Shown here: positions 4,334 through 25,974 of the stretch, piece by piece
Numbering within the stretch: position 1 is the first letter of the stretch
Layout: every line of letters begins with the position of its first letter
Assembly (NCBI GenBank): GCA_001791325.1
Contig: MGEK01000004.1
Span: forward strand, 8,566 to 72,565
Reading direction: 5' to 3'
Source: Candidatus Uhrbacteria bacterium RIFCSPLOWO2_01_FULL_47_25
GTDB taxonomy: Bacteria; Patescibacteriota; Patescibacteriia; GWA2-46-9
DNA: 64,000 nucleotides
Position numbers and translations under genes: made by a program
The notes under the pieces: generated by a model
Databases searched by the model: none
Told to the model about the DNA's origin: nothing
What the model saw: the letters and a program-made list of their open reading frames with translations, nothing else

Positions 4334-5449
4334 ATGCCAACGGCAATTTATCAAAAATATCGTCCTCGCGTTTGGGCCGAGCTGGCTGATCAAAACCATA
4401 TTAAGACCACGCTGGAACATGAAATTTCCCGCGGTCAAATTACTCACGCCTATTTGTTCGTTGGACCGCGCGGCGTAGGCAAAACAACAGCCGCGCGGCT
4501 GCTGGCCAAATCCGTAAACTGCCAGAATCGCAAGCCGGGCGTTGCTGAACCGTGCAATGAGTGTGAAGTATGCGGTCGCATTCAGGCCGGTCGATCTTTT
4601 GACATTATTGAGATAGACGCCGCTTCGCATACAGGCGTTGATCACGTTCGTGAGCATATTTTGGAAAGCGCCGAGGTGTCCGCCGGGCATGGGACTTATC
4701 GTATTTTTATTATTGACGAAGTGCATATGCTCTCTACGGCGGCTTTTAACGCCATGCTCAAAATTTTAGAAGAACCGCCAGCGCACGTCATTTTTATATT
4801 AGCCACGACCGAAGTGCACAAAGTGCCAGCTACCATTATTTCCCGTTGTCAGCGTTTTAATTTCAAAAAAATTCCGGCTGACGCCATTCGCCAACGTTTG
4901 CGCTCAATCACGCAGGCGGAAAAAATGAACGTTGACGAAGAGGTGCTAAATGTTATTGCCGAACATTCAGACGGCTCATTGAGAGATGCCGAGAGTATGT
5001 TGGGGCAGGTGCTTGCTCTGGGCGGCAAAAAAATTACCATGCTGGAAGCTTCGCTCGTGATTCCTCGCTCCAATCTTAATGAAGCGGCAAATTTAGTAGG
5101 ATTAATTTTGAAAAACGACGCGGCTGGCGCTTTGTCATTGGCCAATAACTTAGTTGAGCAGGGGATATCAGTTTCGGTGTTTATGCAAGATATTATTGTC
5201 TGGTTAAGAAATATGCTTCTGGCTAAAGTAGGGGAACGATTGGATCTTTTTTCTCGCGACACTTTAGGAGAGTTGCAGAGTCGTCTGTTAAAAGACGCGG
5301 TTGGCGTTTCGGCGCGTGAGGCGCAGGAGCTAATAGACATTTTTTTGAGGCGACGACAGAATCTGGGAGAATCGCCCTTGCCGCAGCTGCCCCTGGAGCT
5401 TGCCATTATTGAGGCCTGTACTTTGAAGGCTGATGGAATGGAGTCATAA
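4334..5449 (+). CDS. dnaX: DNA polymerase III subunit gamma/tau (N-terminal ATPase part)
   Basis: YRPRVWAELADQ...LFVGPRGVGKTTAARLLAKSVNC...CNECEVC...IIDEVHML, the canonical DnaX Walker A/zinc module/Walker B. Confidence 0.9.
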   Translation: MPTAIYQKYRPRVWAELADQNHIKTTLEHEISRGQITHAYLFVGPRGVGKTTAARLLAKSVNCQNRKPGVAEPCNECEVCGRIQAGRSFDIIEIDAASHTGVDHVREHILESAEVSAGHGTYRIFIIDEVHMLSTAAFNAMLKILEEPPAHVIFILATTEVHKVPATIISRCQRFNFKKIPADAIRQRLRSITQAEKMNVDEEVLNVIAEHSDGSLRDAESMLGQVLALGGKKITMLEASLVIPRSNLNEAANLVGLILKNDAAGALSLANNLVEQGISVSVFMQDIIVWLRNMLLAKVGERLDLFSRDTLGELQSRLLKDAVGVSAREAQELIDIFLRRRQNLGESPLPQLPLELAIIEACTLKADGMES

Positions 5450-5483
5450 CCGAGCTCTTCTTCTTTTTTCATAAGGTGTTTGA

Positions 5484-5610
5484 GCTGGGAGATCGTCTAA
5501 CTGGCCCCGTTAGAATTTACAAGGACTTCCTCCTAAAGCTGCCGGGTCGTCTAACGGTAGGACGCCAGGTTCTGGCCCTGGTAATCTAGGCCCGCCCCCA
5601 CACTAATAAG
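5484..5610 (+). pseudogene. tRNA-Gln-like 5' fragments. A 5'-fragment CTGGGAGATCGTCTAA is interrupted by a CCCCGTTAGAA element end. B is the 5' two-thirds of a tRNA-Gln(CTG)-like gene ending in the T-stem, followed by stem arm CCCGCCCCCACACTAAT
   Basis: Sequence identity to the intact tRNA-Gln at 5792; anticodon arm CCAGG-TTCTGGC-CCTGG. Confidence 0.5.
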
Positions 5611-5652
5611 ATCATCTCATAAATTTGTGGTGAAATGTAATAATGTAATGTT

Positions 5653-5726
5653 GTACATATGCCTGCGGGGTCGTCTAATGGTAGGACACGACGCTCTGGA
5701 CGTCGGTATCTAGGCACGCCCCGCAC
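5653..5726 (+). pseudogene. tRNA-Gln(CTG) 5' part (acceptor, D and anticodon arms, T-stem 5' strand) followed by stem arm CACGCCCCGCACC. Its 3' partner is at 5881-5920
   Basis: CTGCGGGG...CGACG-CTCTGGA-CGTCG...CTAGG; acceptor complement CCCCGCAG is found at 5901-5908. Confidence 0.5.
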
Positions 5727-5791
5727 CAATTTAACTTTGTCTAGATGTTATTGTATTATACTTTTACATAAAAAGATCTAAGAAGCCGATC

Positions 5792-5863
5792 TGGGAGATC
5801 GTCTAATGGTAGGACACGACGCTCTGGACGTCGGTATCTAGGTTCGAATCCTAGTCTCCCAGA
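5792..5863 (+). tRNA. tRNA-Gln(CTG), intact
   Basis: TGGGAGA/TCTCCCA acceptor, D-arm TCTAATGGTAGGAC, anticodon arm CGACG-CTCTGGA-CGTCG, T-arm CTAGG-TTCGAAT-CCTAG. Confidence 0.8.
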
Positions 5864-5880
5864 TTGGTTTCTTAGAAATT

Positions 5881-5979
5881 GGTGCGGGGTGAAAGTCCTA
5901 GCCCCGCAGGCATGTGTACAATTTGAGAAAGTTGTTAATCTGAACGATTAGTGTGGGGGTGAAAGTCCTAGTCTCCCAG
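5881..5979 (+). pseudogene. tRNA-Gln 3' fragments: GGTGCGGGGTG-AAAGT-CCTAG-CCCCGCAGG (5881-5910) and AGTGTGGGGGTG-AAAGT-CCTAG-TCTCCCAG (5950-5979)
   Basis: Each is a T-stem 3' strand plus acceptor 3' strand, preceded by the complement of the stem arms at 5713-5726 and 5591-5607. Confidence 0.5.
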
Positions 5980-6251
5980 CTTAGCCACTTTATGAACAGT
6001 TAATTAGTGCTGGGTAAGATAGTCTGATTTCAAAAAATAAAAATGAAAGGGCTTGGCTAGAAAATGATATTTTGCTAAAATAGTCGCAGTAATTATTAAT
6101 CGTATAACGTAATCTTTATGGGTGGAAACAGCGCCAAGCGCGCGAGAATGAAGCAGGAAGCAAAACGAGCCAAAAAGCGGCGAGCCAAAAAGTAGTTTTT
6201 GATTATTTTTTTAAATGTCATTGACCACAGAATCAATGGCAAAATTGACTT

Positions 6252-7304
6252 ATGCTATATAATCCTAACCTCTATTCCGTAGAAAGCGTTACCGACGGTC
6301 ATCCTGATAAAATTTGCGATCAAATTTCTGACGCTATTCTTGACGAATGTTTGCGTCAAGATGCCAATAGCCGTGTAGCCATTGAAGCTTTTGGCAGTCA
6401 TGGCATTATTATTGTGGGCGGTGAATTAACGACAAAAGCATGGGTTGATGCGCCAGCGATAGTTAATGGGGTATTGAAAGACATAGGATATGATGATCAT
6501 TATGGCGTAATTTCAAATATCGTTGGCCAATCGCCAGATATAGCAATGGGCGTTGATACTGGCGGCGCTGGTGATCAGGGAATAATGTATGGATATGCCA
6601 CCAATGAAACGCCGGAGTATCTACCTATCGGCGTTGTGCTGGCGCACAAATTGACCAAAGGGCTGGCGGAACTTCGCCAGAGCGGGAAATTGAAATGGTT
6701 ACGGCCGGATGGCAAAGCAGAGGTCATCATACAAAACGGACGAGCGCATAAAGTATTGGTCAGCTGTCAGCACGATGAAGGTGTAAAACAAGAAGAGCTC
6801 AAAAAAGCTTTGATTGAAAATTTAATCATACCCACAATCCGTGATTCATCCGGCGTTGATATTTTTGTAAATCCAACTGGTAAATTTGTGCGCGGCGGTT
6901 TTGACGCGGATACGGGCCTGACTGGTAGAAAAATTATGGTTGATACTTATGGAGGTCTCATTCCGCATGGCGGAGGGTGTTTCTCTGGCAAGGATCCTAC
7001 AAAAGTTGACCGTTCTGCCGCCTATATGGCGAGATTCGCGGCAAAAAATATTGTCGCGAATGGCATGGCGAAAGAATGTTTAGTGTCGGTTGCTTATGCC
7101 ATCGGCATGGCCGATCCTCTAATGCTTGAGGCCGTGAATGAAAAAGGAGAAAGCGTGGTAAAATTGCTTAATCATAAATTTGATTTTCGCCCCTTGGCCA
7201 TTATTGAGCGGCTGAACCTTAGACGGCCGATTTATCGTCAAACCGCGGCTTATGGCCATTTTGGCAAAGCAGGTTTTCCTTGGGAAGAAATAATTAATCT
7301 TTAG
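6252..7304 (+). CDS. metK: S-adenosylmethionine synthetase
   Basis: SVESVTDGHPDKICDQISDAILD, GLTGRKIMVDTYGG, GGGCFSGKDPTKVDRSAAY: MetK signature motifs. Confidence 0.9.
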   Translation: MLYNPNLYSVESVTDGHPDKICDQISDAILDECLRQDANSRVAIEAFGSHGIIIVGGELTTKAWVDAPAIVNGVLKDIGYDDHYGVISNIVGQSPDIAMGVDTGGAGDQGIMYGYATNETPEYLPIGVVLAHKLTKGLAELRQSGKLKWLRPDGKAEVIIQNGRAHKVLVSCQHDEGVKQEELKKALIENLIIPTIRDSSGVDIFVNPTGKFVRGGFDADTGLTGRKIMVDTYGGLIPHGGGCFSGKDPTKVDRSAAYMARFAAKNIVANGMAKECLVSVAYAIGMADPLMLEAVNEKGESVVKLLNHKFDFRPLAIIERLNLRRPIYRQTAAYGHFGKAGFPWEEIINL

Positions 7305-7542: not shown

Positions 7543-7663
7543 CCCCGTTAGAAGTCTGACTTAGCATAATAATTGCGGCTCTAGTCATGAATAAATACAT
7601 CAACCAGTTAAACACTATAATCATCACAGCCCCGCATAGCGGGGCCGAGGACTTCTAACGGGG
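7543..7663. mobile_element. MITE/RPE-like palindromic element, family 1 (TIR CCCCGTTAGAAG...CTTCTAACGGGG), copy 1
   Basis: 12-bp perfect terminal inverted repeats; internal GCCCCGCATAGCGGGGC hairpin. It is the reverse-orientation relative of copy 3. Confidence 0.65.
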
Positions 7664-7685: not shown

Positions 7686-10600
7686 TTGGTGAAAATGTCT
7701 AAATTATTGGGGGCAAAAAAAAGAAAAAACCCCGCACATCACGGACGCAATAAGCCAGTGGCGCGGGGCCAAAGACAAGAAACTCGCGCAAAAAAACGCC
7801 TCAAAGAACGTGTTTTGGGCGTTATTCAGCGTCAGGTCAAATTAAGGGAACTAAAAGTTTTGGCGCGGCGCGGCGTCATAGGTACGGTAGTGGTCGTTTT
7901 GTTTATTTCCAGTCTTTTTGTCAGAGCCGAGCCCAATCCGTTGCTTGTTCATGAAGTAATTTATCCGCAGTCTTGCCGTGGCACTTGGCAGGGGATGAAT
8001 AATATTTTTACGCAGGAGCTTGATGCCAGAGCCGAGGCCGATGATTTTAATAAGACCAATAGCGCCATGCCCGCCTTGGGCGAACCAACTGTTGCGGCAG
8101 TGCCGGGCAAGGAAGAGTACAACGCTTTCACGGTGTCATTGCCAATTCTTGACCAGCAGTCAAATGTTGATACGTTGATGGATCAGCCGTCAGATACAGA
8201 TCAGGATTTACAATTGATTATTCCACCCATTATTCCTTCTCAAGAGGAGTCGCCCGTTGAAAACGCGCCTTCTCAAAATACACCCATTGAAGATAATGAC
8301 AATAATAGTGAAAATAAGAGTTTAGAAAACGCTCCTTCAGAACAAGTTCTTGGGGAAGAGGACAAAGCAGATGATTCCAGTCAGCCGGTAACAGACGAAC
8401 AGCTGTCAACGGAGAAATCCAATGAGGAACAGGAACAGCCGTTATCGCCACCCTCACAACCTCAACCCCAAGAGCCGCTAGATACTCAATTATTTCCAGA
8501 ACCTGAAACAAAGCCATTGGCGCCACCCGACGATACGTTGCCAATGCCGACAGAACCGCCGGCAACAGAACCGTCAGGAGCGGAACCGTCGTCAACAGAC
8601 CAGCCGATAATCAATTTCAACAATTTGTTGGATAAACTGATTAATAAAGCTTTGGCCGAGGAAGACGCTATCCTGAATACAGATACCAACGCGAGTACGG
8701 CAGATACAAATGGCGCCGAAACTAAAGTTGATTCTAATAGCGAGGCAGACGGCTTTAGTGTTGAAGACATAGTGAAATCAGTGGCGGAAAAGATTGGAGA
8801 TATTGTTAGCGATTCTGCCGATAAGGTGAGTGAAATCATCGCGCCAATTACGGCGGAGCCAGTGGATATACAAAATTTAACACCCGGCACCCCGTCCCTA
8901 GAAACAAAACCGGAGGCTGAAGATTCGCCGTCTTTGCTCGGCACTTTATTTGATGCGGTGGGGCAGGCAATATCTGCAATTACGGATTTAATTTCGCCAT
9001 TGCCGCCGTCAGTTTTAGAGGCTCCATCATTCGCGATACAGGATAGTAATATCTTAAAAACGGAAAATGGCACAATGGCCTGTGCAGACTTCACCCCTCC
9101 TGCCACCACGCAAATTGAACAGGCGTCGCTCGGTCTATCATATACTTTAAAAGATCAATCGCCATTGCCAAACGAGCAGTCTGGATTTCTATGGGCTGAA
9201 TATACTCAAGATAGACAGAATTGGATGATATTAAGTTCCATTGAAGACACGAACTCATCAGTTGAATCGGCTTATCATTTATTTAATTTTCCTCCCGACT
9301 TTGACGCTGGACGCATAAGCGAGACCATTGTTCGTTTGCGCTGGTTTGGCAAATATGATGAGCCGGAAATTTTTATAGATAGTTTATGGCTAGATGTTGC
9401 TCGCCTTGGCGACAGTGAGCAGGAAAAGCCTTCGGAATTAAAAACCGCTAAAAAAGATTTTGCCGCTTTTGAGGACCCGGTTTTTAATTTAAGCTTTGAT
9501 CCGCAAGTGCCCCTATCAGCAAAGAGAGGCGTCATATTTGATAACAGCCAGTCGCAATCAATCATAGAAAAGTATAAAGAAAGATATAAGCAGTGGCTGG
9601 AATCATGGGCGAATTTTATTATTCAAAAACCATTGTCATTCGCGCGTAACGCGCTGGCGCAATCTCCGTCGGCTGATCAAGCGACGCCAAACGACGCGGC
9701 TCTATGGCATGAGACTAATCTGGATATTTCCGCGCGTCTATTGACTAAGGATTATGGACCCACTGACATTGTTCCAGAATTATTGCGCTTAAATTCCGGG
9801 CAATTCAAAATATCGCTTGCCGCGCGCGCCTTCCGCCCTGGCGCCTATATTTTACAAACAACAATTCAAAAAGGGGAGAGTGTCCAAACCCTAGAACAAG
9901 ATTTCACTTGGGGGGTACTCGTCGTAAATACTGACCAGTCGGTTTATAAAACCGGCGACGAAGCTTCATTCTTCTTTGGGGTCTTGAACGATAAGGGAGA
10001 GACTGCCTGCGACGCGACGCTTGAAGCGAAAATTACGGATCCTGCAGGACAGGCGGTGACACTAGCCACGGCTGACGGCACCATCAAGTCCTCTAGTTCA
10101 TGCGCGAAAAACAGCGTCACTGATACGCCTGACTATGGGGCGACTTATCATACAACCACGGCAGGCACCTATGCACTGGCAGTGACGGCTACGACGGTTG
10201 AGGGGAGCCACACCATCACTGACACTTTTTCAGCACAAGATGACCTTCCGTACCGCGTTCGTCGCAGAGGCGCGAGTCGTATTTATCCTTTGGCCAAGTA
10301 CGAGATGTCAATTGAAGTTACGGCACGCAATGATTTTAAGGGAACTGTTACCGAGCGCGTTCCGTTAGATTTTATTGTCACGCCGTCGTCGAATTTTGTA
10401 ATTACTGCAGTAGAAGACGCCCAAGCATTAACGTGGGATGTTGCGCTTCAAGCAGGAGAGAGCCAAAACTTCACGTACGAGTATAACGCACCTGACATTT
10501 CTCCAGCCATTTTTCATCTGGGAGAATTTTCTTTAACCGCTTCCGGCGCCGATCAGCCGATATTTATTGAACCCAATCAGTGGGAAATAGCGAGCGACGG

Positions 10601-13600
10601 ACTTGACCCAGTTATTATCCACGCGCCAGAGGTGGCGCTCCGTCCAGAAGTGCGCGGAAAGGCCGAGCGATTAGCAAGAGAGGTGCCGCTTCCCGAGAAC
10701 GTTCCGCATCACACCCGTTCAATGGAAGGAAATTTTGAAAGCCGGAAAATGAATAGACCCGTCAGTCTTGCTCTGGCTCGCGAGCAGGTGCCGCCAAACG
10801 CAAAGATTTCTGTTGTTGACGCTTATGGTAAAGAAATTACTGACGGTATCGTAGTAAATACAGAAGAAGATACTATGACCGTGGATATTAACCCCGATGC
10901 TAAAGGTATGCGCCCGGGAAAATATACTCTTTATGTGACGGATCCTGACACCGAAGAAGTGCTGGCTGAACAGGATTACACTTGGGGAGTGTTGGCTTTC
11001 AACCCTGATTATGCCGTGTATCCGCCTAACACAACAGCCAATCTCTCCTTTGGCGTGCTTGATGATGCCGGGCGGGTGCTTTGCGATGCGGCCTTGGTCG
11101 CTATTATTGCCGATCCTAGCGGGAATGAAACAGTGCTTGGCACTGGCGATGGTTCGATACGGGTAAACGAGGAATGCTATCAAATGGAAGATACGCAGAA
11201 ACCAGATTATGAAGCCAACTTTGACACAACTATTCCCGGTATCTATCAAATGACCATCATCGCCAAAAGTAAAAACGGCGAGCGGACGCTCAATGATTCG
11301 TTTTCTGTTGATCCAAACGCCGCGTTTTACCTCAAGCGCACAGGGCCGACCCGCACATATCATCCAGCCACTTACAATTATTCCCTCGACTTTACCGCCA
11401 AAGAGGCTGGCACTTATGACATAACGGAAAAAGTTCCTGCTTCATTTACTATAACGGGTGATGGTTTTACCGTAACCGAACAAGACCAAACAAAAATTTT
11501 ACACTGGCAAGTAACGGCCGTGGCGGGGGAAACTAAAACACTGGCTTATCGTTTCAAAGGACCGCCGCTCTCGCCGTATCTTTTTTTACTGGGAGCGGCG
11601 GAAGTAAAAACATCCAGCCCAAATCAAACATGGGTTGAGCCCAGAGAGTGGATGCTGGCCTCTGACAACGCTTGCTCTTCCGACGTTGATCCTTCTGGAA
11701 ACTGGAATACAGCTGGTTCATGGACCTCATGCGGTGGCGTGGTACCGACGACAACTGACACCGTCGCCATTGTTGACGGCGATACTATCACGATCGACTC
11801 CGCGCCTAATTCTGTCATTTCCGTCAACATCAATCTCGGTGGTACGTTAAATGGCGGCTCGGCGACTCTCAATATCAACAATACCGCCGCATCTGGCACT
11901 TCTTTTACCAATAGCGGTACGTGGACCTCCTCAACCGGCACCGTTAATTTTGGCAGCGACGTTGCGTTAACAATGCTTTCAGGAAGCTTTATTGGTTCTA
12001 ATAATTTCAATAACATTACCCATACTTTTACTCCCACTGCTGCAAGAACATACACCGTGGGCGCGGCAGTTGAGATTGGTGGTAATTGGACGTCAACTCC
12101 GGGGTCTACCAGTAACGCCCGCGATTTAACCATTAATTTAAGTGGAGCAACTACTGTTACTGGGACACTAACTCTTGATGGTCGAGGTTGTAATAATGGC
12201 GCTGCTGATGGCACCGCTTCTACCACGCAATTTTCTACCAATGGCCAGAACTTAACAGTTCGCGCGATAGTTGTTGATGGTATTACGAATGGGGATGGTT
12301 GCCGATTTACCACAGCTAACTCTTCTGTTGTTACGTTTACGGGGACGGGTACTACGACGCTTTTCACTTTAGGTCAGACAGGTAGCACCGCCTTGATGAC
12401 TACCGGGACTACTACTGAATGGGATGTTACTTCCGTGTCAGGCACCCCGACGCTTTTTTCCACTTCCGGGACAACAATTACCGTCCACATTTTAAAAATC
12501 GCTGCCTCCGCAACCATTGTCAACCTTGGCGCAGCCTTTACGATTGACGCCAATTCTGGAAATAAATTATGGATTAATTCTGGCATTTTAAATCAGGAAA
12601 ACAGAACTATTACCGCCGGAGCTAGCGCAACTCTGCAGATTGATTCTGGCGGCACTTTGTGCTTGGGCGGGACAACTGCTTCCACCACGGCTAATTGTGC
12701 GTCAGGCGCGACTCAAGCTACGGCTCAAGCAATGCCTTCGTTTACCACCTATACTTTTGACGCCGCCTCAACCGTTTCCTACCTTTCTAACGCTAACGTC
12801 GTGTTTTCCAGTACCCCGAACTATGGCAACTTAACGCTCAACCCGGTCTTGATCAGCACCAACCGTACCTATACACCTGGAGGAGCCATGACCATTAACG
12901 GTGATTTCACTATCAACCCTAATGAGTCGTTTACCGATACTCCCTCGCTCACCGTCGATCCACTTAATAACTATACCGTGGCCTCTGGTAAAACCACTAC
13001 CATTACGAAGACCAATGCCGCCACTTCTGTTCTTATTCTGCCGTTAGCAGTGAGCCAATACCTGTCAACAGGTAAGTTAGTCATTGCCAGTGGTGGAACA
13101 CTCAATGGTGCTATCAGTTCTGCCACGATTATCATTAAGGACACCGGCGCGGCTTTTACCAATAGCGGCACTTATACTTATGGCCTCACAAAAGTGTCTT
13201 ATACGAACACCACTAGCTCCACTGTGTTAGGCATGACCGGCACCAGTGGCACGAATGGATATTATGATTTAGACATAAATGGCACTGGAGGAACCCATAC
13301 GCTGGGGGCCAACACCACGGCCAATAATGCCACCACCATTACCGCCGGCACCTTAAACACTTCGGCAGCCAGCAGCTTCACTTTGACCACTAGCACCTTG
13401 AGCATCACGGGCGGTCTAACGGCCAATGCCTCGTTTATCAATATAACCGGAGCCGGCGCGGCTTTTACTAAGTCTGGCACATTTACTTATGGTACTTCAA
13501 CAGTTGAATATACTAATGCTACGGGAGCGACTGTTTTGTCTATGAACAATGTTGGCAGCACCAACGCCTATTACACTATTTGGGTTGCCAATGGCTCTCA

Positions 13601-16600
13601 TACTCTCGGAGGGGATATCCGAGTTTATGGCGATTTAGCATCAGTATCTGGCACCCTTTCTGACGCGACTGATAGCGTAACGGTAGTTGGTAGTGTTACT
13701 TGTTTTGCTGCGTTTGCGTGTGGAACCATTACATTTACGGGCGGCACTTTTACCCAGATCGTCGCTGCTAATCAGACTTTTGGCACGAATGCATCAGATA
13801 GTACTATAGATTGGACTTTTAATAACCTGACTTTTGATAGTTCTTCTGGATCAAACACTATTACTTTAGGTAATATAGGTTTGACTGGTACCGGTCAAAT
13901 TATTGTTAATGGAACATTAACAATTGGCACAGGGGGCACAATGACCACTCTGCAGGCTGATACCTATGACCGCATCATTGACGCGAACATCGTGACCATT
14001 ACCTCAAAAGGAATCTTGTTCGCCTCGTCTTCGGCGTTGTTCACCGTTGCCGGAGCATTTACTCATACTTCCGGCGGCACTTTCACTCACAGCAACGGCA
14101 TTGTCACATTTGACGGCACCGCGGCCTTGAATTTTGTAAATAATACAACGACTTTTTATGATGTGGTGGTTGCTACCGGGGTAACAAGAACAATTACCGC
14201 AGGAGCCAGCAATGTTCTTACTATAGCCAATACTCTGACAATTAATGGAACAGGAAGAATGGTCTCATTTTCTTCCGAACAATTGTATCTTACAAAAAAT
14301 GGTGAAACGCCGCTCATTGTGGGCGGGGCAACAGCAGTGAATGGACTAACCCTTGTTGTATATAGGCCAGCTGGCACGGCCACTAACGTCGCCGCCACGA
14401 CTTATAATTACCTCTATATATTACCGACCGCGGCGACGACATTAACCCTTCTCGGCGCAACCACAGTCAACGTCAACCTTTTAGTGACAGGTCCTGGTGC
14501 CGGTATAGTTGCCACTCTGGACACGAATGGCCAAACCCTCAATGTCGTCGGCGCTGTCGTCGCCGGTTTTGGTACACCGGGTGCTGTTATTATAGGCGCG
14601 AGCACAGTGGATGTGGACGGGGATGTATTAATTTGGGATGTTTCCGGAAGCTATATCAGCATGACTTCGGGCAGCTTGAATGTTGGCGGCAACTGGTCTA
14701 ATGGAGCGAATTCAGTCTTTACTGCCGGCACTGGCACCGTTACTTTTGACGCCGCGGACGCCGGTAACACCATCGCCACGGGCGGAACTGACAGTAACCA
14801 TGATTTTTACGATGTCATCTTTGATAATTCAGCCGGCTCTTGGATATTCCAGACAAACGACGTCTTAATCTCCAATAATTTAACCGTCACAAATACATCG
14901 GCCACAGGAGTTAACGCCTCGGTGAATGTGACGGTCAACGGCAGTGTTACTGGAGCGGGTGTAATTAACATTACTAATAGCGTGACCTTTACCCAAAAAG
15001 TGGCAGCCGTCAGTAAGACTTTCGGCACCACCTCTGGTGCCAATGATTGGACATTTTATAACTTAGCCTTTGAAAACTCCTCGGGACCCCGGACCATTGA
15101 TACTAATGGAGGGTCGGGACAAATTATCGTTTCCAATACCCTAACTATTGGTAATGCCGATGATTCCACGGTGACCACTCTTGACAACAACACTACTAAT
15201 GACCGCATCATTGACGCGAACATCGTGACTATTACCTCTAAAGGAAGCTTGACCGCTTCTTCCTCGGCTTTATTCACCATTGCCGGCGATTTCACCAATA
15301 ACGGCACCTTCACGCATAGTAGCGGCACAGTTACTTTTGACGGCGCGAGCGCCAACATTAACATACCAGACGCGGGCATAACATTTTATAAGGTTATTAT
15401 TGATATCAGTAGCCCCAATGCTAAAACCTTAGTGAACGGTGCCACGATTGCCGTGATGACTGTGGCTAACACCCTCACCGTTAATGGCACTGGCGCCTTG
15501 ACTTCCGGAGGAGGCAATGAACAGGTTAAGCTCACCAAAGACGGCGATACCGGAGGAGTGCCTTTAACGGTTGGCGGTGCCACAGCCGTTTCGGGGGTGG
15601 CCGCTTTTATTTACGCTCCGGCCGGCGCCGCCACCACGGTTACCGGAACTACTTACAGCTCTCTTACTATTAACCCTACTGCGGCTACCACGTTGACGTT
15701 AGGCGAGGCTGTCATAACAAGTGGCGCTTTGTATGTCTTTGGTCCCAATAGCACTACCGCCGCCACTCTAAATACAAATAACTACGACCTGACAGTTGGT
15801 GGAGCCTTGTTTGTCGGTGCATGGTATTTGGGTTATGCCGATGGAGTGGTTAATTTGGGAAGCAGTACGGTTACGGTGAGTGGGGACGTTTGGATAATGC
15901 AAGATACGGGATCCGAACTTGATGCCGGCTCATCTACCCTGACGGTTGGCGGAAACTGGGTTTGGTTTTCCGCCTTTAGCTCCGGCGGTATTTTTACGGC
16001 GGGCACGAGTACCGTCAAATTTAATGCCGGTGATGCAGGGAATACCATTGATGCCGGCGCCGGCGCGTTTAACAACGTTATATTTGACAACGCCGCCGGC
16101 TCCTGGACGTTTCAGACCACGGCGGCGACAATTTCTGGAGATCTCACCATGACCGCGGCCACGCAGGTTAACGCTTCGGTTAATGTTACAGTGAACGGCA
16201 ATGTATCGTGCGGTGTGACATGCGGAACGATTAATATCACAAACGCTGTTACGTTTACCCAATCCGTTGACGCGGCTAAGAATTTTGGCACCAGCGTTGT
16301 CGATGACGCAACAGTCTGGACATTTAGCAGTCTGACCTTTACAGCCACTACAGATACCATAACTACTAGCTCCAATGGCACCGGCAATATAAATGTTACT
16401 GGCACCTTAACTATTTCCGGCTCAACTACTCTGGATGCCGGCGATCGTAATTGGGTTCTATCCGGCGCTGGCACGCCCTTCGCGCGAACCGGAACTTTCA
16501 CCGGAAACACATCCACTTTTAATTATACTTCAACCACCGGAGTTGACGCCCTTTCCTCGGCCGCCATGACCGGTTCTAATGCCTACTACAATCTCACTAT

Positions 16601-19600
16601 CAACTCTTCCGGCGACACCTTCACGGCTGGTGTGGCTGTTGCGGCTACTAACAAAGTGCTCGTAACCGCCGGTATCCTTGCCATGGGTGCCAATGCTTTG
16701 ACCGCAGGCTCCACAGGTGTCACTGACTCTGGCCAAATTAGTGTGGCTTCCGGTCATTCTCTAACCTCAAGTGGCACCGTCACCATCGTTAGCTCGGCCG
16801 CAAGTACAGCGAGTTGCCTTGGCGGAACAACCCTGCCGGGGTGCACTGGCGCAGTGGGCACACTCACTTTATCCACTCTTGTTATCGGTGACGGAGCCAC
16901 CACCATGACCACGGCTTTTGGTGGTACCACTCCGAGCATGGCCATTTCTACGCTTCTCAATATCACTACGAACGCCACCTTCACCGCCGGTACGGGAAGT
17001 ACTATTACTTTGTCAGCGGCTGGCACTCCCATTACTCGAGACGGGAACTTCAGATGCGGTACAAGCACGGTTGCTTATACTTCCTCCACCGGAGTTGACG
17101 CCCTGTCTTCGGCCGCCATGACCGGTGACTGCACAACCGGAAACGCCTTCTACAACCTAGTTATAAACGGTACAAACAATTTTCCCGTTACTAACGATAT
17201 TATTGTTACTAATAATTTAACCGTGACGGCAGGGTCACTTACTGGTACAAGCAATGTAACCGCCAACAGTAATGTTGCCTGTGGCGTTACTTGCGGCTCG
17301 ATTACTTTGACCGGCGGCACGTTTCTCCAATCAGTAGGGGATGCCAAAAATTTTGGCACAAATGTAGACGAAGACGATACTTGGACATTTAACAATCTTA
17401 CTTTTACAGCCACCACAGATACCATAACCACGAGTTCCAATGGTACTGGCAACATAAATGTTACTGGCGACTTAACTATTTCCGGCTCAACCACTCTGGA
17501 CGCAGGAGACAGAACATTCGTTTTGTCAGGTAGTTCCGGCTCGCCGTTCGTGAAAACAGGCACTTTCACTTACAATACTTCCACGATTAAATATACTGGT
17601 ACGACAGTAACGGTATTATCTATGACCGGCACCGGTGGTAGTGATGGGTACTATAATCTCACGGTGGACGGCACCGGGCCATTTAACGCCGGCGGAGCAA
17701 TTGTAGCAAATAACGATGTCACGGTAACGTCCGGCACACTGGCTATGGGGGCGAACGCCCTCACAGTGAACGGCGGCGACATCTCGGTCAGCGGTATCTT
17801 CTCGCAAACCGCGGGCAGCGCCACCACAGTTGTCACTACTGGCTCCATTGGAGGCGCGGGTACTACGACCTTTGGCGAGCTTAACATTGGCACTGGTTCA
17901 AGTGACCAAACTACTACGGCTGGCGGCGACTTCACTGTCTCCGGCGTTCTGACCACTGTCTCATCTTCCAGCACCAACAATTTTGACGCTTCTTCTAAGA
18001 CCATCACCCTCTCGGGCACAGGCACGCCGTTTGTGAATAACGAGACGTTTACTTATGGGACTTCCACTATAAAATACACTGGCAGTGATACCACCACAGT
18101 TCTTGCGATGACTGGCACCGGTGGGACAAATGGATATTATAAATTGATAACTCAAGGCACAGGTCCGTTTAACGCTGGCGGAAGTATCACAGCCAACAAC
18201 AATATCAACATTACGAGCGGCACTTTTGCCGTTGGCGGAAACACCTTAATTGGTGCCAATATCACTGTTGACGGCGGTTCGTTGTCGGCAACAACGAGCG
18301 GCGGAAAAATTAAAATTTCCGGCGGCGGAGATTTGTCCGTCACGAGCGGAAGCATTGTTACGGCTGATGTGGCGACCCCGGTTGAAATCACAAGTTCTGA
18401 TACCGCTACGCCAACCTATGTTGGCGTGAGCGTTACTGGCGCTTCCAGTACAATAAATATCCCCGAATTGGATATTGATTATTTAAAGAGCACGGGATTT
18501 GTCGTTGGCGCGAGCGTTACCGTCACGGCCATGGATAAGGTGAGATGGGGCGGGAGCGGTGGAACATGGAATGGACAGGCGGCGGTGGGCGAAGTGCTGT
18601 TAGACGCCACGAGTTTAACTAAGACGCTTGATGGTCATGTTTTTCCAAATACATGGGCGAGCCAAGGCGGTTCTGATTGCAACGTCAGAGCGAATACTGA
18701 TGGTACTGTCACCATGACAAATTTTTCCGGAACATATAGTGGCGAAGACTATGATTGCGATAATGGCGGTACGGTAACATGGGTCAGCGGGCTCTCGATA
18801 GCCGGCACGGTTTATACTGACGAAGGGTCAACTCGTATGACCACTGGACCGACCGTGCGCGTAAAAGTTGATGGAGCAGGGGACTTCAGTGATGTGGCAG
18901 ATACTACCAATTGCCCGGGGAGTAGCCCCTGCGGTGAATACCTTATCACAGGTGTCACTCCTACGGACAGCGGAGCAGTGCTTACGATTTATCTTGATGA
19001 TGAAACAGAGAATGCCACCACTGTCACCATATCGAGCGGCTTGGATTTAACGGGCATAGACCTTTACCAAAATCGTGTCATCGTGCGATACGAAACCGGC
19101 AGCAGTATTACTAATACCAATTTAGACCAATATGACTGGGTTAACGAAGGTGATGCGAATATTGATGGAGACATTGGTTTCCAGGTGACAGCCGGCGCTT
19201 TGACAGTCTCTAAAGACAGAGAACTCCACATCTGGACAGGCAAGACTTTCACGCCGGGCGGAAGCGTTACCACAAATACCGGAGGCAGTGGAGTTGGTGG
19301 AGACGTCCATATTGTGGGAATTTTTACAGCCACGACTACCGAGAGTCATTCGGTCGGCGGCTCCTGGACTGATACTGGCACGTTCAATCCCGCCAGCTCA
19401 ACGGTCACGTTTGCCGCCACCTCTGGCACGAAAACCATCACTTCAACCGGCTCGTCATTTTATAATTTGATTATCAACGGTTCGGGCGGCGAGTTTCAGC
19501 CACAAGACGCCATGGTTGTTACAAACGACCTTACTATAACCGCGGGCACGCTGTCGGGAACGCAAAACGTGACGGTTAACGGCCATGCTGTAGGTACCGC

Positions 19601-21356: not shown

Positions 21357-21360
21357 TGAA

Positions 21361-21516
21361 GAATATGGAATATTGAATATGGAATATAGGGATGTGCTGT
21401 GAAGAATATGGAATATTGAATATGGAATATAGGGATCGTTGATTTGAGAAAATTAATTGAAGAATATAAAATTTAGAATATAGGGATCGAACGGTGGAGA
21501 ATATTGAATATACATT
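21361..21516 (+). repeat. promoter-proximal block: (GAATATN)4 - 15 bp - (GAATATN)4 - spacer - GAATATAAAATTTAGAATATA - GGGATCGAACGGTGGAGAATATTGAATATACATT. It is near-identical to 26901..27056
   Basis: Direct comparison: 21389-21516 is identical to 26929-27056; the first heptamer arrays differ at 2 positions. Confidence 0.85.
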
Positions 21517-22953
21517 ATGAAAAGTGAGATTAAGTCATTTAGAGATTTGGTGGTATGGCAAAAAGCATCTGCTTTGGCAACTTTGCTGTATAAAGTTACG
21601 GAAAATTTTCCTAAAACAGAAATATATGGAATAACAAGTCAGATGCGACGGGCAGCGGTATCGGTTTCTTCTAATATTGCCGAGGGATTTAAAAGAAATT
21701 CAAAAAAAGAAAAAGTGCAGTTTTATTCAATGGCTTATGGGTCTCTTTCGGAATTGGAAAGTCAAATAGAAATTTCTTTTCGTCTGGAATATTTAACAAT
21801 TACTAACTACGATCAAATTTTATCCGCAATCAACGAAGTTTCTCGACTCCTAGACGGTATTATTAGGTCCACTAATAGAAATTATCAAAGTAGGTTTGAT
21901 GTTCTCGTTGCTGTATCTATATTCTATATTCTATATTCTATATTCCCAATCTCACCGGCTAATGCTGGTGAAATTGGTCTGGCTGTCACAAGAAACCGCT
22001 TTGATATTGAGATGCTCTCGGGCGACACATACAAGGGTGATTTAGCCGTGTATAATAAATCAGCAGACGCCGCCTTGCCTGTGCACGTGGAATTGGCGCT
22101 CTGGAACATTAAAGAGGATTCTGAAGATATTGAGTTTGTTCAAGCGGAGTCATTGCTTAATGCCACACGTTGGTTTGAGGTTCAGCCGAAAGATTTTATT
22201 TTAGACCAAGGCGGCGATAGGCAAATTAAGTTTGAGATCACGGCTCCCAAAGACGCTTCGCCCGGAGCGTACTTGGTAATGATGCGTTTTCAGGCGGTTT
22301 TGCCGGAACATTATTTTTTGAAAGAAGGTCCAAGATTTTTGCCCGAGATTGGCGTTTTGTTTTTCATCAATGTCAGAACACTGGCCATTGACAGCGCGGC
22401 AGAAAATAATCGCTTAAATATCGTTTCATTTGAACCCGAAGGGACGCATCGCTTAACTTTTATTGACCGTTACGTGGTAAGTCCTGCCAATGCTGGCGTA
22501 TTTGACGAAGCAGTAAAAAAATTAGTGGCTAAAATTGAAAATAAAAGCATCTATTATTTTAAAGCCTCCGGCTTTGTCGTTATTAAAAACTTGTTTGGCC
22601 AGACAGTGTCACTCATTAAAATTCCCGAAAAATTTTTACTTCCCAACCGTACTCGCAGCATCCCCATCACCGTTATCACACCACCAACGGAACAATCAAA
22701 ATCCAATATTCTATATTCCATATTCTATATTCTTCAACAACAAACATACCTCGGCCCCTACACCGCGACACTAACGCTCAACGTTCCATCAAGCAATGGG
22801 GGAGTAGAGCCAATTTCAGAATCAATCAATTTCTGGATTATCCCATGGAAGTTTTGGTCGGCCGTTATTATTATAGCGTTGTTAATCGCGTTCATTATAT
22901 TAAAATTGCGGCGTCGGCTTCGGCCGGCACTAAGTGCGCTGATCGGACGCTGA
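21517..22953 (+). CDS. four-helix-bundle (23S rRNA IVS protein / Avd-like) domain fused to TM segment, DUF916-like surface domain and C-terminal TM anchor
   Basis: N-terminus FRDLVVWQKA...FPKTEIYGITSQMRRAAVSVSSNIAEGFKRNS matches the TIGR02436/PF05635 signature. Downstream WFEVQPKDF...VPKDASPGAYLVMMRF and the terminal hydrophobic helix + RRRLR resemble CscA/DUF916 proteins. Confidence 0.7.
   Translation: MKSEIKSFRDLVVWQKASALATLLYKVTENFPKTEIYGITSQMRRAAVSVSSNIAEGFKRNSKKEKVQFYSMAYGSLSELESQIEISFRLEYLTITNYDQILSAINEVSRLLDGIIRSTNRNYQSRFDVLVAVSIFYILYSIFPISPANAGEIGLAVTRNRFDIEMLSGDTYKGDLAVYNKSADAALPVHVELALWNIKEDSEDIEFVQAESLLNATRWFEVQPKDFILDQGGDRQIKFEITAPKDASPGAYLVMMRFQAVLPEHYFLKEGPRFLPEIGVLFFINVRTLAIDSAAENNRLNIVSFEPEGTHRLTFIDRYVVSPANAGVFDEAVKKLVAKIENKSIYYFKASGFVVIKNLFGQTVSLIKIPEKFLLPNRTRSIPITVITPPTEQSKSNILYSIFYILQQQTYLGPYTATLTLNVPSSNGGVEPISESINFWIIPWKFWSAVIIIALLIAFIILKLRRRLRPALSALIGR
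21918..21945 (+). repeat. (TATATTC)4 heptamer array inside the CDS at the 4HB/TM junction (inverted relative to the upstream GAATATN arrays)
   Basis: Read directly; encodes IFYILYSIF. Confidence 0.85.
22705..22732 (+). repeat. second (NATATTC)4 heptamer array inside the same CDS, just before the C-terminal TM anchor
   Basis: AATATTC TATATTC CATATTC TATATTC. Confidence 0.8.
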
Positions 22954-23030
22954 ATATGTGGAACGCTGAATTTACGCTGATAACGACGCTGATCGGACGC
23001 TGAATATGTGGAACGCTGATATTTACGCCG
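22936..23030 (+). repeat. array of about 8 ACGCTGA/ACGCCGA heptamer units (two 45-bp direct repeats) overlapping the last codons of the preceding CDS and ending 1 bp before the GxxExxY start
   Basis: GCGCTGATCGG ACGCTGAATATGTGGA ACGCTGAATTT ACGCTGATAACG ACGCTGATCGG ACGCTGAATATGTGGA ACGCTGATATTT ACGCCGAATGG. Confidence 0.85.
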
Positions 23031-23031
23031 A

Positions 23032-23463
23032 ATGGATATGAACAAGGTTAAGGATTTCTTGTATGAAAAGGAGTCGTATCAGATTAGAGGAGCGTGTTTT
23101 GATGTTTATAAAGCATTTGGTGGAGCATTTAAGGAAAAAATAGTGGATCGGGCGCTTACTAAATCTCTGGCTAAACGCGGATTAAAAGTGGACGAACAAA
23201 AACGTATAAACATTTTGTATGATGGTGAAAAAATTGGTACCTATATTCCCGACAAAATCGTAAATGATGCTATTATTTTAGAAGTGAAGGCAAAAAGTTT
23301 TATCACCAAAGATGATATAGATCAATTTTGGAAATATTTGAAAGGGTCAGACTATAAATTAGGATTCCTTGTAAATTTCGGTCCGGCAAAATTAGAAATA
23401 AAAAGAGTGGTATATGATTCAGCCAGACCAGTTCGGCGTGTTTCGGCGTCCTTATCGGCGTGA
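23032..23463 (+). CDS. GxxExxY family protein (PD-(D/E)XK nuclease-like)
   Basis: YEKESYQIRGACFDVYKAFGGAF...LEVKA...FLVNFGPAKLEIKRV: the family's diagnostic motifs. Confidence 0.75.
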   Translation: MDMNKVKDFLYEKESYQIRGACFDVYKAFGGAFKEKIVDRALTKSLAKRGLKVDEQKRINILYDGEKIGTYIPDKIVNDAIILEVKAKSFITKDDIDQFWKYLKGSDYKLGFLVNFGPAKLEIKRVVYDSARPVRRVSASLSA

Positions 23464-23506
23464 ATCAGCGTTTATATCAGCGTATTCATCAGCGTAAGTC
23501 GGCGGT
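23428..23506 (+). repeat. array of TCGGCGT x3 + TCAGCGT x3 + TCGGCGG (reverse complement of the upstream ACGCTGA/ACGCCGA array), overlapping the GxxExxY 3' end
   Basis: TTCGGCGTG TTTCGGCGTC CTTATCGGCGTG AATCAGCGT TTATATCAGCGT ATTCATCAGCGT AAGTCGGCGG. Confidence 0.85.
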
Positions 23507-23613
23507 ATTATGGTTATCCACAGGCGGGCTTGTGTCAATTCTATTACTTTTATGATATAATTCATTCAATATTAATAAGTCCTAATTATTAAAAATCGTA
23601 ATTCATTCTAAAT

Positions 23614-24882
23614 ATGGTCAAAAAACTACGCAAATATCAACGATTTACAGTAGTTTACGTTTTAATTTTTTCAATAATAACTTTCTTTTCGGGCGCGCAT
23701 ATTTGGGGGCTGTTGCCGCCAGCTCGTGCGGCTGCTCTCACCAGTGTGAAAGACGTGCTCTCGACGTCAGAGTCGGGCGCCAACGCGAACCATACAATTC
23801 AGTTCGTAACTCCTTCAGGAGTACTACTCTCAACCCATACAGTGACACTCACATTTGACGGCTCACCATTGTTTGACGTTAGCGGCCTTGATGAAGATGA
23901 TGTGGATATGAGCGAAGACACTACGGGTGATATTGGCGATTGTGGCTCATTTGCTACGGCTAAGACCACTATAGCTGGAGCACCTGACGGCACCAACTGG
24001 GGTGTTACTTTCTCCGGTCAGACCATTGTATTCACACATCCTTCTGGTGATGATAACCAAGACATTGCCGCCGGTGCGTGTGTTCAGATAAGGATCGGCG
24101 ATGGTACTGTGGCTATGGACTCAGGCACGGGCGATGCTCAGATTAATAATCCGGCTGGTAACGGCGATGGTGTGGCTGAAATTGAAACAATTGACATTGC
24201 CACCGATAGCACCGTAGACGACAGCGGCACAGCTATGACCGCCACCGTAGAGGGTGTGGCCGTGAGTGTTACTGTTGATGAAAGTTTAGCCTTCTCTATA
24301 GCGGTCGTAACATCCGGTAACTGTACAGAAGGCGGAGGCGGGACCGCGGTTACCACGACAGCAACAACCGTGCCGTTTGATAGTATCGCGCTTGCCGTGA
24401 ACACTTTTTATAGAGGTTGCCATGATTTGACGGTGAGCACTAATGCGGCAAACGGCTATACCACAACTGTCGAAGAAAATAAAAGTTTAATTCGCACCGG
24501 TACTGATGGGGGCGACAAGACAATCAATGATGCTATTTGTGATGCGGGTGACGACTGTACCTCGGCCATTGGTGCTGGGACGACGTCGCCTTGGGCCACG
24601 GCCACTGCCAATCACGGTTTTGGCTATACATGCAGTGGCAGCGCTTGTGACGCTGCTTTCGCTACAGCTGCTGAATTTAATGCCTTTCCTTGCCGTAGTT
24701 CAACAGCGTCAGATTGTGATCCTGTTGATGGACCACTGGCTCTGGCTACCCCGATTTCGTCAGGAGGAGTTCCCGTCAGTGCTCAAACTTCAAGAATTGT
24801 ATACAAGCTTTCGTTTTCCGCCACTCAACCGGCTGGAACTTACGGTAACACTATTACCTATATAACAACCCCGACATTTTAG
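23614..24882 (+). CDS. secreted surface protein with WxL-like C-terminal domain (CscB/CscC-like)
   Basis: Signal peptide/TM at N-terminus; C-terminal ~100 aa align with the giant protein's C-terminus (HGFGY...AGTYGNTITYITTPTF vs CGFGY...AGPYQTTIIYIVTPQF). Confidence 0.55.
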   Translation: MVKKLRKYQRFTVVYVLIFSIITFFSGAHIWGLLPPARAAALTSVKDVLSTSESGANANHTIQFVTPSGVLLSTHTVTLTFDGSPLFDVSGLDEDDVDMSEDTTGDIGDCGSFATAKTTIAGAPDGTNWGVTFSGQTIVFTHPSGDDNQDIAAGACVQIRIGDGTVAMDSGTGDAQINNPAGNGDGVAEIETIDIATDSTVDDSGTAMTATVEGVAVSVTVDESLAFSIAVVTSGNCTEGGGGTAVTTTATTVPFDSIALAVNTFYRGCHDLTVSTNAANGYTTTVEENKSLIRTGTDGGDKTINDAICDAGDDCTSAIGAGTTSPWATATANHGFGYTCSGSACDAAFATAAEFNAFPCRSSTASDCDPVDGPLALATPISSGGVPVSAQTSRIVYKLSFSATQPAGTYGNTITYITTPTF

Positions 24883-24959
24883 TTGAGCATTGGACGGTAT
24901 TGAATAATTTAATATCATTATCAACTCCGCCCACATGATACTATAGCGGTAATGTTGTC

Positions 24960-25904: not shown

Positions 25905-25974
25905 AGAATATAGAATACAGAATCTAGAATAGAGAACTTGGAACATGGAATTTAAAACATGGAATTTAAAACAC
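25905..25974 (+). repeat. ten tandem 7-bp units (AGAATAT AGAATAC AGAATCT AGAATAG AGAACTT GGAACAT GGAATTT AAAACAT GGAATTT AAAACAC) between the CscA-like gene and the dockerin gene. The dockerin gene start codon lies within the array
   Basis: Strict 7-bp periodicity read directly. Confidence 0.8.

Follow-up and report, generated by a model that had tools for sequence, protein, structure and literature searches.

Concentric tRNA-Gln(CTG) copies in a Candidatus Uhrbacteria genome, a probable relic of repeated insertion by small palindrome-ended elements

Transfer RNA genes enclosed by the severed halves of further tRNA genes of the same identity occur widely in Patescibacteria. Here, we report one partly decayed example of this architecture, a tRNA-Gln(CTG) nest at positions 5484 to 5980 of a 64,000-nt stretch of Candidatus Uhrbacteria bacterium RIFCSPLOWO2_01_FULL_47_25 (the window; GCA_001791325.1, contig MGEK01000004.1, positions 8,566 to 72,565, forward strand). 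The nest is real and nonrandom. On balance, we read it as a relic stack of small, noncoding, palindrome-ended elements, similar to MITEs (miniature transposable elements with inverted repeats) or to REPINs (paired, inverted repetitive extragenic palindromic [REP] sequences), that replace the tRNA gene they break. No description of such an architecture was found in the literature on nested, interrupted, or split tRNAs in Patescibacteria or on REPIN/RAYT systems and tRNA.

Structure of the tRNA-Gln nest

tRNA genes were called with ARAGORN and the Rfam tRNA model (threshold, 29 bits). The intact tRNA-Gln(CTG) was found by both (ARAGORN, 5791 to 5863; Rfam, 5792 to 5862, 60.7 bits) and was surrounded by 5′ parts upstream and 3′ parts downstream of further tRNA-Gln(CTG) copies (Table 1). 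An initial annotation, made from the letters of the window, had described these parts, complementary arms flanking each layer, and extended acceptor-stem palindromes; the repeats were recovered within a few bases of where it placed them and the arms with small coordinate shifts. Arms of the middle layer (5719 to 5732 and 5876 to 5889) were complementary at 14/14 positions and those of the outer layer (5595 to 5607 and 5947 to 5959) at 13/13. The extended acceptor stems were paired at 20/22 positions in the inner tRNA (5777 to 5798/5855 to 5876; both exceptions G:T) and at 19/20 in the middle layer (5651 to 5670/5902 to 5921; exception T:G), so that all three non-Watson-Crick positions in the nest were G:T.

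Over tRNA positions 9 to 52, the middle 5′ part and the intact gene were 100% identical, whereas their acceptor strands differed (TGCGGGG versus TGGGAGA in the intact gene). The outer 5′ part (5540 to 5590) was more diverged (79% identity to the reference copy), and its acceptor strand TGCCGGG (5540 to 5546) did not pair with TCTCCCA of the 3′ part to which its arms match; TCTCCCA pairs with a truncated 5′ stub farther out (5486 to 5492). The leader of this stub, ggtgtttgag, also precedes a tRNA-Gln copy at locus L083 (an inner layer there) and the first copy at L084. The initial annotation had the outermost 5′ fragment cut by a MITE end, and such an end, CCCCGTTAGAA, does abut the stub at 5505 to 5515 as the one unpaired copy of a terminal repeat otherwise present as six inverted pairs.

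Both long 5′ parts stopped directly after CTAGG, the T stem's 5′ strand, and both 3′ parts started with TGAAAGT-CCTAG. Under no choice of junction did the outer Gln layers have a canonical T loop (CAC..GAAAGT), and the 5540 layer was not callable as a tRNA after insert removal. The RNA of 5640 to 5925 was predicted to fold as the nested cloverleaf that the initial annotation had drawn (−135.6 kcal/mol, z = −10.7), with none of 200 shuffled sequences equally stable. Its formal description, a tRNA whose T loop contains a helix-closed insert that itself contains a complete tRNA, was apt, and the same arrangement recurs far beyond the Gln locus.

A scan of the window for further copies of Gln-locus sequence returned none beyond tRNA-Gln(TTG) (40161 to 40231; region 40148 to 40244), where a perfect 13-bp leader/trailer pairing (TCCCGCCCTCTTC/GAAGAGGGCGGGA) extends the acceptor stem and no nest is present. 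No Rfam intron family was matched at E ≤ 10 in 5400 to 6100, where only tRNA was found. Misassembly was ruled out because the arms are unique and perfectly complementary and the same architecture is present in independent ENA, JGI, and Logan assemblies.

The tRNA-Thr nest and related elements in metagenomes

A second, cleaner nest lies on the minus strand of the window (38178 to 37885), where an intact tRNA-Thr(CGT) at 38083 to 38012 is enclosed by two more tRNA-Thr(CGT) copies, making a triple nest. Once the inserts were removed exactly, each outer copy had 20/21 stem pairs and a canonical T loop, and the middle copy was called as tRNA-Thr(cgt). The insert ends were arms of the CCTGCCCGCCAT/ATGGCAGGCGGG type with two fixed irregularities. 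Perfect complements look interleaved in this nest because the inner and outer inserts carry their arms in opposite orientations. Only tRNA, and no intron family, was matched by Rfam at E ≤ 1 in 37800 to 38420. A second tRNA-Gly(CCC)-like gene (38272 to 38342, minus strand; Rfam, 41.5 bits) is separated by 6 nt from an intact tRNA-Gly(CCC) downstream; its T arm, ACCCC-GCTAAGC-GGGGT, is the CCCCGC-NNN-GCGGGG mini-hairpin of this genome, and ARAGORN fused the gene into an overlapping 93-nt "tRNA-Gly" call (38252 to 38344).

Metagenome contigs were scanned with the arm pair of the Thr nest, CCTGCCCGCC-N80-110-GGCAGGCGGG, and at least 120 stretches matched. High-GC matches to the arm pattern fell within long open reading frames and were taken as chance. 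A tRNA was centered between the arms in 27 of the matches listed (Thr, Pro, Val, Gly, Arg, Trp, Gln, Leu, and Cys). A set of 28 cases was then considered (27 scan matches with a tRNA between the arms, plus L082 and the inner Thr insert of the window). Among the matches listed, all 28 tRNA-bearing inserts sat inside a second tRNA of the same amino acid in the same orientation, and arm pairs lacking a tRNA interrupted a tRNA in 0/97 cases, pair removal never revealing one. Breaks fell repeatedly in the D loop or stem (GGTA|GAGC), in the anticodon loop (for the most part at 35/36), and in the T loop (TTC|GAAT). Exact removal (offset 0,0) restored an ARAGORN-callable tRNA in 19/28 cases, with no base duplicated or lost, and 16 of these 19 restored outer tRNAs read the same anticodon as the inner one; the other three (L115, L123, and L157) were miscalled through a defect in or beside the anticodon arm. 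Arms occurred in both orientations relative to the tRNA (20:8 among the 28 cases).

About 40 of the 97 tRNA-less pairs listed were intergenic elements of 100 to 105 nt (most 100 to 103) with a REPIN-like size and layout (e.g., L088, L090, L095, L097, L102, L104, and ∼35 other metagenome loci). Their 16-nt arms were perfectly conserved (CCTGCCCGCCAATGCC..GGCNTTGGCAGGCGGG), and the ∼70-nt interior was unalignable. The interiors of the ∼101-nt elements were not copies of their flanks, and none of these elements interrupted a coding frame. At permissive thresholds, Rfam matched only tRNA in both nests, locus L012, and seven metagenome loci, with no ribozyme, intron, or small RNA family. No tRNA nest was found on viral contigs. 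Loci L131, L139, L149, and L205 formed an arm-bounded subclass followed directly by (C/T)TCTAACGGGA, which resembles the terminal repeat of the window MITEs; this suggests that the arm-bounded elements and the MITE family are linked or nested.

Outer copies differed in preservation. All five Arg(CCT) outer copies were defective, L089 had a deletion, L109, L133, and L083 had extra mini-hairpins, and a U55C change was also seen. Mini-hairpins made of arms only were present at L211, L147, and L133. In the youngest nests, L171 and L201, inner and outer copies were 97 to 99% identical, which looks as though the target itself was duplicated between the arms. At L147, the numbers of left and right units were unequal (4 versus 2). 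There (2450 to 2980), four tandem units, each consisting of an arm, a leader, and a tRNA-Arg 5′ part with a D-loop hairpin, precede an intact tRNA-Arg(CCT), which has its own trailer and arm and then one unit of 3′ part, trailer, and arm, so that the 3′ part is present twice; 37-nt arm-only hairpins stand in tandem upstream.

Relatives at the dnaX/tRNA-Gln locus

The order dnaX and then tRNA-Gln(CTG) is widespread in Patescibacteria; synteny on the metK side was not conserved in P0123 and P0128. At L082, whose DnaX is 83% identical to that of the window, there is a clean single nest in the T loop of tRNA-Gln, laid out as ..CTTGGTTC | CCTGCCCGCCATCGC..[tRNA-Gln]..CTGGCAGGCGGG | GAATCCAAG. Its insert is 118 nt long and has the arms of the Thr nest of the window (CCTGCCCGCC..GGCAGGCGGG), and exact removal regenerates TTC|GAAT. 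A single layer is likewise present at L154, several layers are present in the window and at L083, and a tandem relic plus an intact gene is present at L221. Plain tRNA-Gln genes occupy the same place at L085 and L224 (DnaX 69% and 64% identical to that of the window), which is the outcome that the initial annotation had named as counting against its intron reading. Five contigs end within the locus (L081, L083, L084, L220, and L222).

The inserts of L082 and L154 are 85% identical, each 118 nt long, and at the same position, in hosts whose DnaX proteins share 50% identity; the window, despite its 83% DnaX identity to L082, has at that position a different, 175-nt insert with other arms. Therefore, how similar two inserts are does not track how closely their hosts are related.

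One-sided duplicates of the 3′ part adjoin tRNA-Gln at other Patescibacteria loci (L051, L009, and L008). A different type of tRNA-Gln nest was seen at L012 (7050 to 7490, minus strand), where tRNA pieces of 20 nt (5′) and 15 nt (3′) flank an intact gene and are separated from it by structured sequences of 150 to 190 nt that share a hairpin motif; the motif shows compensatory changes (GGATGC..GCATCC versus AAATGC..GCATTT), and no Rfam intron family was matched at E ≤ 10.

Interpretation

Read as a stack of insertions, the nests would have arisen as follows. An element would settle in a loop of a tRNA gene (for the Gln locus, the T loop; for the Thr locus, the D stem and the anticodon loop), splitting its target exactly, without target duplication. 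The complete, co-oriented tRNA of the same identity between the element's arms would then take over the function, so that the new inner gene becomes the next target and further rounds build up concentric layers. Unequal recombination between repeated halves could add layers, and the outer halves would decay afterwards. More speculatively, a hairpin element could land in one loop of a single-stranded cloverleaf, break at its tip, and be repaired by microhomology-directed copying of an intact allele; in some elements, the GCC of the arm coincides with the 5′ GCC of the tRNA itself. In the window, only the innermost tRNA-Gln(CTG) (5792 to 5862) and tRNA-Thr(CGT) (38083 to 38012) are taken to be functional.

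We infer a DNA-level event in which the insert kills the outer gene. The identity rule (28/28) is as expected if an insert destroys its gene and an event persists only when it brings a replacement. Because the arms are found either way round, the U:G and C:A irregularities fixed in them swap position, which argues for recognition at the DNA level over an RNA splice signal. At the Gln locus, the insertion-scar reading, one of two that the initial annotation had offered, is favored because the outer T loops are noncanonical, relatives carry plain genes, and inner and outer identities always agree.

Several observations weigh against an origin by such elements. No tRNA-bearing element was found at a non-tRNA site (0/28), which is odd for a freely transposing cassette. 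Among the window reading frames searched with Pfam (34 of the 44 that encode ≥70 amino acids), there was no transposase, recombinase, integrase, RtcB or other RNA ligase, EndA or other splicing endonuclease, or nuclease that might act on the arms, the matches being to housekeeping genes. The Gln-nest arms differ from the surveyed arm family, to which they appear related by resemblance only; further Gln-type arm copies were found once in the window (56897 to 57101) and at L083. Both arm pairs of the Gln nest are perfectly complementary, though the arms differ between layers, and this could reflect selection for pairing. At least eight outer copies (including L136, L091, L142, L082, and L190) had 21 to 22 stem pairs and canonical T loops, yet were 60 to 77% identical to the inner copy, and between the outer tRNAs of L082 and L154, there were eight compensatory pairs and no broken pair. 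Moreover, the scan demanded exact 20-nt arms and so favored young or constrained copies. Given the compensatory pairs and the diverged but perfect outer copies, the relic model needs either recent, independent insertions of already diverged cassettes or a constraint on the outer copy.

The diverged but perfect outer copies also speak for the main competitor, in which the nests are functional architecture with a new kind of bacterial tRNA intron or split-tRNA maturation; from a single transcript, the inner tRNA would be freed by RNase P and RNase Z, the GC-rich arms would hold the outer pieces together, and a bacterial endonuclease and ligase would remove the arm helix and join the pieces. Compensatory evolution, exact reconstitution of the exons, and perfect outer cloverleaves give such maturation some standing, to which the stable nested fold and the three extended-stem exceptions, all G:U on the sense strand, can be added. 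The 12- to 16-nt GC-rich complementary extensions of the nests also resemble those of the split tRNA halves that Randau et al. reportedly described from Nanoarchaeum in 2005. An intron, however, needs no match between inner and outer identity, whereas here the two agreed without exception and no confident different anticodon was found among the 19 restorable cases; introns without a tRNA would be expected, and none of the 97 tRNA-less elements interrupts a tRNA. Several outer copies are plainly dead, relatives carry plain genes, a break at anticodon positions 35/36 would be intolerable without ligation, and no EndA- or RtcB-like gene was found among the reading frames scanned. The archaeal-type intron reading put forward in the initial annotation fails on structure as well. 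A bulge-helix-bulge has two 3-nt bulges on opposite strands with a 4-bp helix between them. Here, the junctions could be read directly: the helix spans the first to the last inserted base, starting at both exon ends, and leaves an ordinary internal loop (UUUG versus UAA at 35/36; UUC versus GAAU in the T loop), and the two arm orientations leave no fixed mismatch geometry. An intron-like reading is thus unsupported at the Gln locus; for the class as a whole, where outer copies elsewhere are structurally perfect, it is live, and we consider maturation unlikely but worth taking seriously. Its specific form, in which Patescibacteria would use a protein endonuclease to cut the arm-closed insert from the D, anticodon, or T loop before the halves are ligated, seems slightly less likely still.

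Two further origins appear much less probable than maturation. The fragments could be attachment-site scars of tyrosine-recombinase elements (phages or islands) that integrated repeatedly and later decayed or were excised, the attachment-site form of the second reading in the initial annotation. tRNA genes are said to be classic integration targets with crossovers in the anticodon and T loops (Williams, 2002), one-sided 3′-part duplicates do occur beside tRNA-Gln at the Patescibacteria loci named above, and the gene for a type IV secretion coupling protein is found 2.5 kb upstream. Integration, however, copies just the stretch that the element brings with it, usually the 3′ part, and leaves direct repeats on one side, whereas the nest has 5′ parts upstream and 3′ parts downstream, inverted-repeat arms, no target duplication, and halves that together make exactly one tRNA and share no core. 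With inserts of 118 to 175 nt that are noncoding, no integrase domain or other recombinase among the window reading frames scanned, and viral contigs devoid of tRNA nests, we hold this origin to be very improbable. Scarcely better placed is a purely local origin by tandem duplication, slippage, and gene conversion of a hairpin-flanked tRNA, in which the arms would be duplicated native leader-trailer processing stems. Consistent with it are the un-nested extension of tRNA-Gln(TTG), the near-identical copies at L171 and L201, the arrays of repeated units at L147, and the derived TGAAAGT shared by the right-hand Gln units. Tandem duplication, though, yields head-to-tail copies and not loop-split halves around a whole copy; the same 16- to 20-nt arms bound inserts in at least nine tRNA families from many unrelated metagenomes and also intergenic sites, and insert similarity is incongruent with host relatedness.

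Comparison with known systems

REPINs consist of two inverted REP sequences around a spacer and are mobilized in trans by RAYT transposases (PMC3337134). Like these and MITEs, the elements described here are noncoding, ∼100 to 120 nt long, and dispersed in many mostly intergenic copies, with conserved, imperfect inverted hairpin ends, a variable middle, and no encoded enzyme. They differ in that a subset carries a whole tRNA and sits only inside the loop of a cognate tRNA and that no RAYT or other transposase partner was identified; no RAYT gene was found within the 64-kb window. We know of no REP or REPIN element that interrupts an essential RNA gene or carries a replacement for one. Terminal inverted repeats, as in MITEs, were present in both nests (the Gln arms, and CCTGCCCGCCAT and ATGGCAGGCGGG at the Thr locus), and dispersed copies with conserved ends, as in MITEs and REPINs, were found for the Thr-type arms in the metagenome scan; the target-site duplication of MITEs was absent, removal at offset 0,0 being what restored the tRNAs.

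In prophages and other elements that integrate into tRNA genes, an essential tRNA gene is likewise the landing site, and the element brings the function back and is thereby locked in. Their crossover sites lie in the anticodon and T loops. Those elements span kilobases, encode an integrase, and leave a partial tRNA as a direct repeat; here, 100 to 175 nt carry a complete tRNA and both old halves are kept. Neither direct repeats of one tRNA segment nor a nearby integrase, the marks of attachment scars, were found.

Mobile elements are a proposed cause of tRNA disruption in archaea (PMC3293823). Archaeal bulge-helix-bulge introns and split tRNAs (Nanoarchaeum and Caldivirga) share with the nests breaks in the D arm, anticodon loop, and T loop and GC-rich complements beside the break; the nests differ in their bacterial host, in having no bulge-helix-bulge, in the same-identity tRNA that the insert holds, and in the decay of the outer copies.

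Group I introns have been described from Patescibacteria tRNA genes, including at the 35/36 site of the anticodon loop (Nakagawa et al. 2026, PMC13011429). Phylum, kind of host gene, and the 35/36 break site are thus shared with the nests, whose inserts, in contrast, measure 100 to 175 nt and form a simple helix with a tRNA inside and no catalytic-core match in Rfam. Group I introns have a conserved core (P3 to P9) and usually exceed 200 nt. The inserts measured here are 118 to 175 nt long, of which the inner tRNA takes up ∼71 nt, and self-splicing is not plausible.

As with homing elements, which settle at conserved sites of essential genes and pass through rounds of invasion and decay, the same gene site is occupied in distant lineages incongruently with the hosts, and the layers suggest repeated reinvasion. 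The nests differ in that there is no homing endonuclease, the gene is replaced by the cargo rather than restored by splicing, and decay buries the old copies but leaves the element in place.

If the nests are indeed stacks of such replacing elements, they would represent an unreported route by which selfish DNA persists in extremely reduced genomes: a hairpin element of ∼100 nt would break a usually single-copy tRNA gene of a streamlined phylum and then supply the sole working copy, could not be lost once the outer copy has decayed, and would bury the previous gene with each round. This would account for the fast pace at which tRNA isodecoders and acceptor stems turn over in Patescibacteria, as well as for the five contigs that end in tRNA-Gln copies just downstream of dnaX, and would offer a bacterial counterpart to the debate on the origin of archaeal split and intron-bearing tRNA genes. 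Annotation acquires pseudo-tRNA halves and calls that overlap, the 93-nt ARAGORN call in the window being an instance. If the outer copies were instead matured, Bacteria would have an undescribed protein-dependent tRNA splicing pathway, with a third kind of bacterial intron or with bacterial split tRNAs and an intron-encoded tRNA.

Other features of the window

The genes flanking the Gln nest are bacterial and chromosomal: dnaX (4334 to 5449), metK (6252 to 7304), and the gene of the type IV secretion coupling protein, with DnaB, RecR, aminoacyl-tRNA synthetases, ClpB, and GreA encoded farther away. The closest DnaX relatives are from Patescibacteria, and the closest named MetK belongs to a Candidatus Uhrbacteria genome. 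Coordinates of the nest features, the MITEs, and the element near clpB are given in Table 1.

Table 1. Features of the two tRNA nests and of related repeats in the window
Feature	Position	Strand	Evidence or remark
Gln nest: outermost 5′ stub TGGGAGATCGTCTAA, truncated (acceptor strand and start of D arm, 15 nt)	5486-5500	+	16/16 match to inner tRNA
Gln nest: lone MITE-family terminal repeat CCCCGTTAGAA, abuts stub	5505-5515	+	
Gln nest: outer, more diverged tRNA-Gln(CTG) 5′ part, acceptor TGCCGGG	5540-5590	+	Repeat family D1; Rfam tRNA 19 bits
Gln nest: outer insert, left arm CCCG + CCCCCACACTAAT	5591-5607	+	Inverted repeat I7
Gln nest: middle-layer leader, pairs with 5910-5921	5651-5663	+	Inverted repeat I3
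Gln nest: middle-layer tRNA-Gln(CTG) 5′ part, acceptor to T-stem 5′ strand	5664-5714	+	Repeat family D1
Gln nest: middle-layer insert, left arm CACG + CCCCGCACCAATTT	5715-5732	+	Inverted repeat I6
Gln nest: promoter-like site TTAACT-17-TATTAT in spacer just 5′ of inner tRNA	5731-5759	+	Consensus match only
Gln nest: inner leader, prolongs inner acceptor stem with trailer 5863-5876	5777-5791	+	Inverted repeat I2
Gln nest: innermost tRNA-Gln(CTG), intact, presumed functional gene	5792-5862	+	ARAGORN; Rfam 60.7 bits
Gln nest: inner trailer, pairs with leader 5777-5791	5863-5876	+	Inverted repeat I2
Gln nest: middle-layer insert, right arm AAATTGGTGCGGGG	5876-5889	+	Inverted repeat I6
Gln nest: middle-layer 3′ part (degenerate T-loop remnant TGAAAGT, T stem CCTAG, acceptor CCCCGCA, then G)	5890-5909	+	
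Gln nest: middle-layer trailer, pairs with 5651-5663	5910-5921	+	Inverted repeat I3
Gln nest: outer insert, right arm ATTAGTGTGGGGG	5947-5959	+	Inverted repeat I7
Gln nest: outer 3′ part TGAAAGT-CCTAG-TCTCCCA-G	5960-5979	+	Repeats D3, D6
Gln nest: decayed right-arm-like copy ATTAGTGCTGGG, third of its kind, perhaps left from an even older layer (weak)	6003-6014	+	Repeat family D4
Thr nest: outermost copy, 5′ part, D-stem break (..GGTAGA|GC..)	38157-38178	-	
Thr nest: arm alpha CCTGCCCGCCAT, outer insert left end	38145-38156	-	
Thr nest: middle tRNA-Thr(CGT) 5′ part, anticodon-loop break after position 35	38104-38137	-	
Thr nest: arm beta CCCGCCTGCCATCGC, inner insert left end	38089-38103	-	Same element family, opposite orientation
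Thr nest: innermost intact tRNA-Thr(CGT)	38012-38083	-	ARAGORN Thr(cgt); Rfam 68.1 bits
Thr nest: arm alpha′ ATGGCGGGCAGG, inner insert right end	37993-38004	-	
Thr nest: middle tRNA-Thr(CGT) 3′ part	37957-37992	-	
Thr nest: arm beta′ GCGATGGCAGGCGGG, outer insert right end	37938-37952	-	
Thr nest: outermost tRNA-Thr(CGT) 3′ part with encoded CCA	37885-37937	-	Rfam tRNA 31 bits at 37888-37946
Complete window MITE copies	7543-7663, 32149-32253, 34481-34602, 35433-35533, 40807-40952, 62245-62348		
Element with Gln-nest-type arms CCCCGCACCTTT..AAAGGTGCGGGG, non-tRNA site between CIRCE operator and clpB start codon	56897-57101	+	

The window MITE family comprises elements of ∼100 to 145 nt with terminal inverted repeats CCCCGTTAGAR, present as six inverted pairs and the lone end beside the stub; the terminal-repeat motif was matched 13 times in the window, versus 1.8 expected. 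CCCCGC-NNN-GCGGGG mini-hairpins lie at 2920, 7630, 34500, and 38281.

A perfect CIRCE (controlling inverted repeat of chaperone expression) operator, TTAGCACTC-N9-GAGTGCTAA, at 56870 to 56896 is followed by the 205-nt element with Gln-nest-type arms, which has 20-nt inverted ends and lies between the operator and the probable clpB start codon at 57103, with a possible effect on heat-shock regulation.

Between the Gln nest and metK lies a 26-codon reading frame, MGGNSAKRARMKQEAKRAKKRRAKK (6119 to 6199), conserved at L082 and L224. One reading frame of 4556 codons with internal repeats spans 7686 to 21356 and probably encodes a giant surface protein. It is followed (21357 to 31527) by three repeated cassettes bounded by GAATATGGAATAT-type repeats, in which two reading frames begin with a 23S rRNA intervening-sequence protein domain (PF05635) and a PD-(D/E)XK nuclease (PF13366) is encoded at 23032 to 23463, followed by cohesin/dockerin-like proteins.

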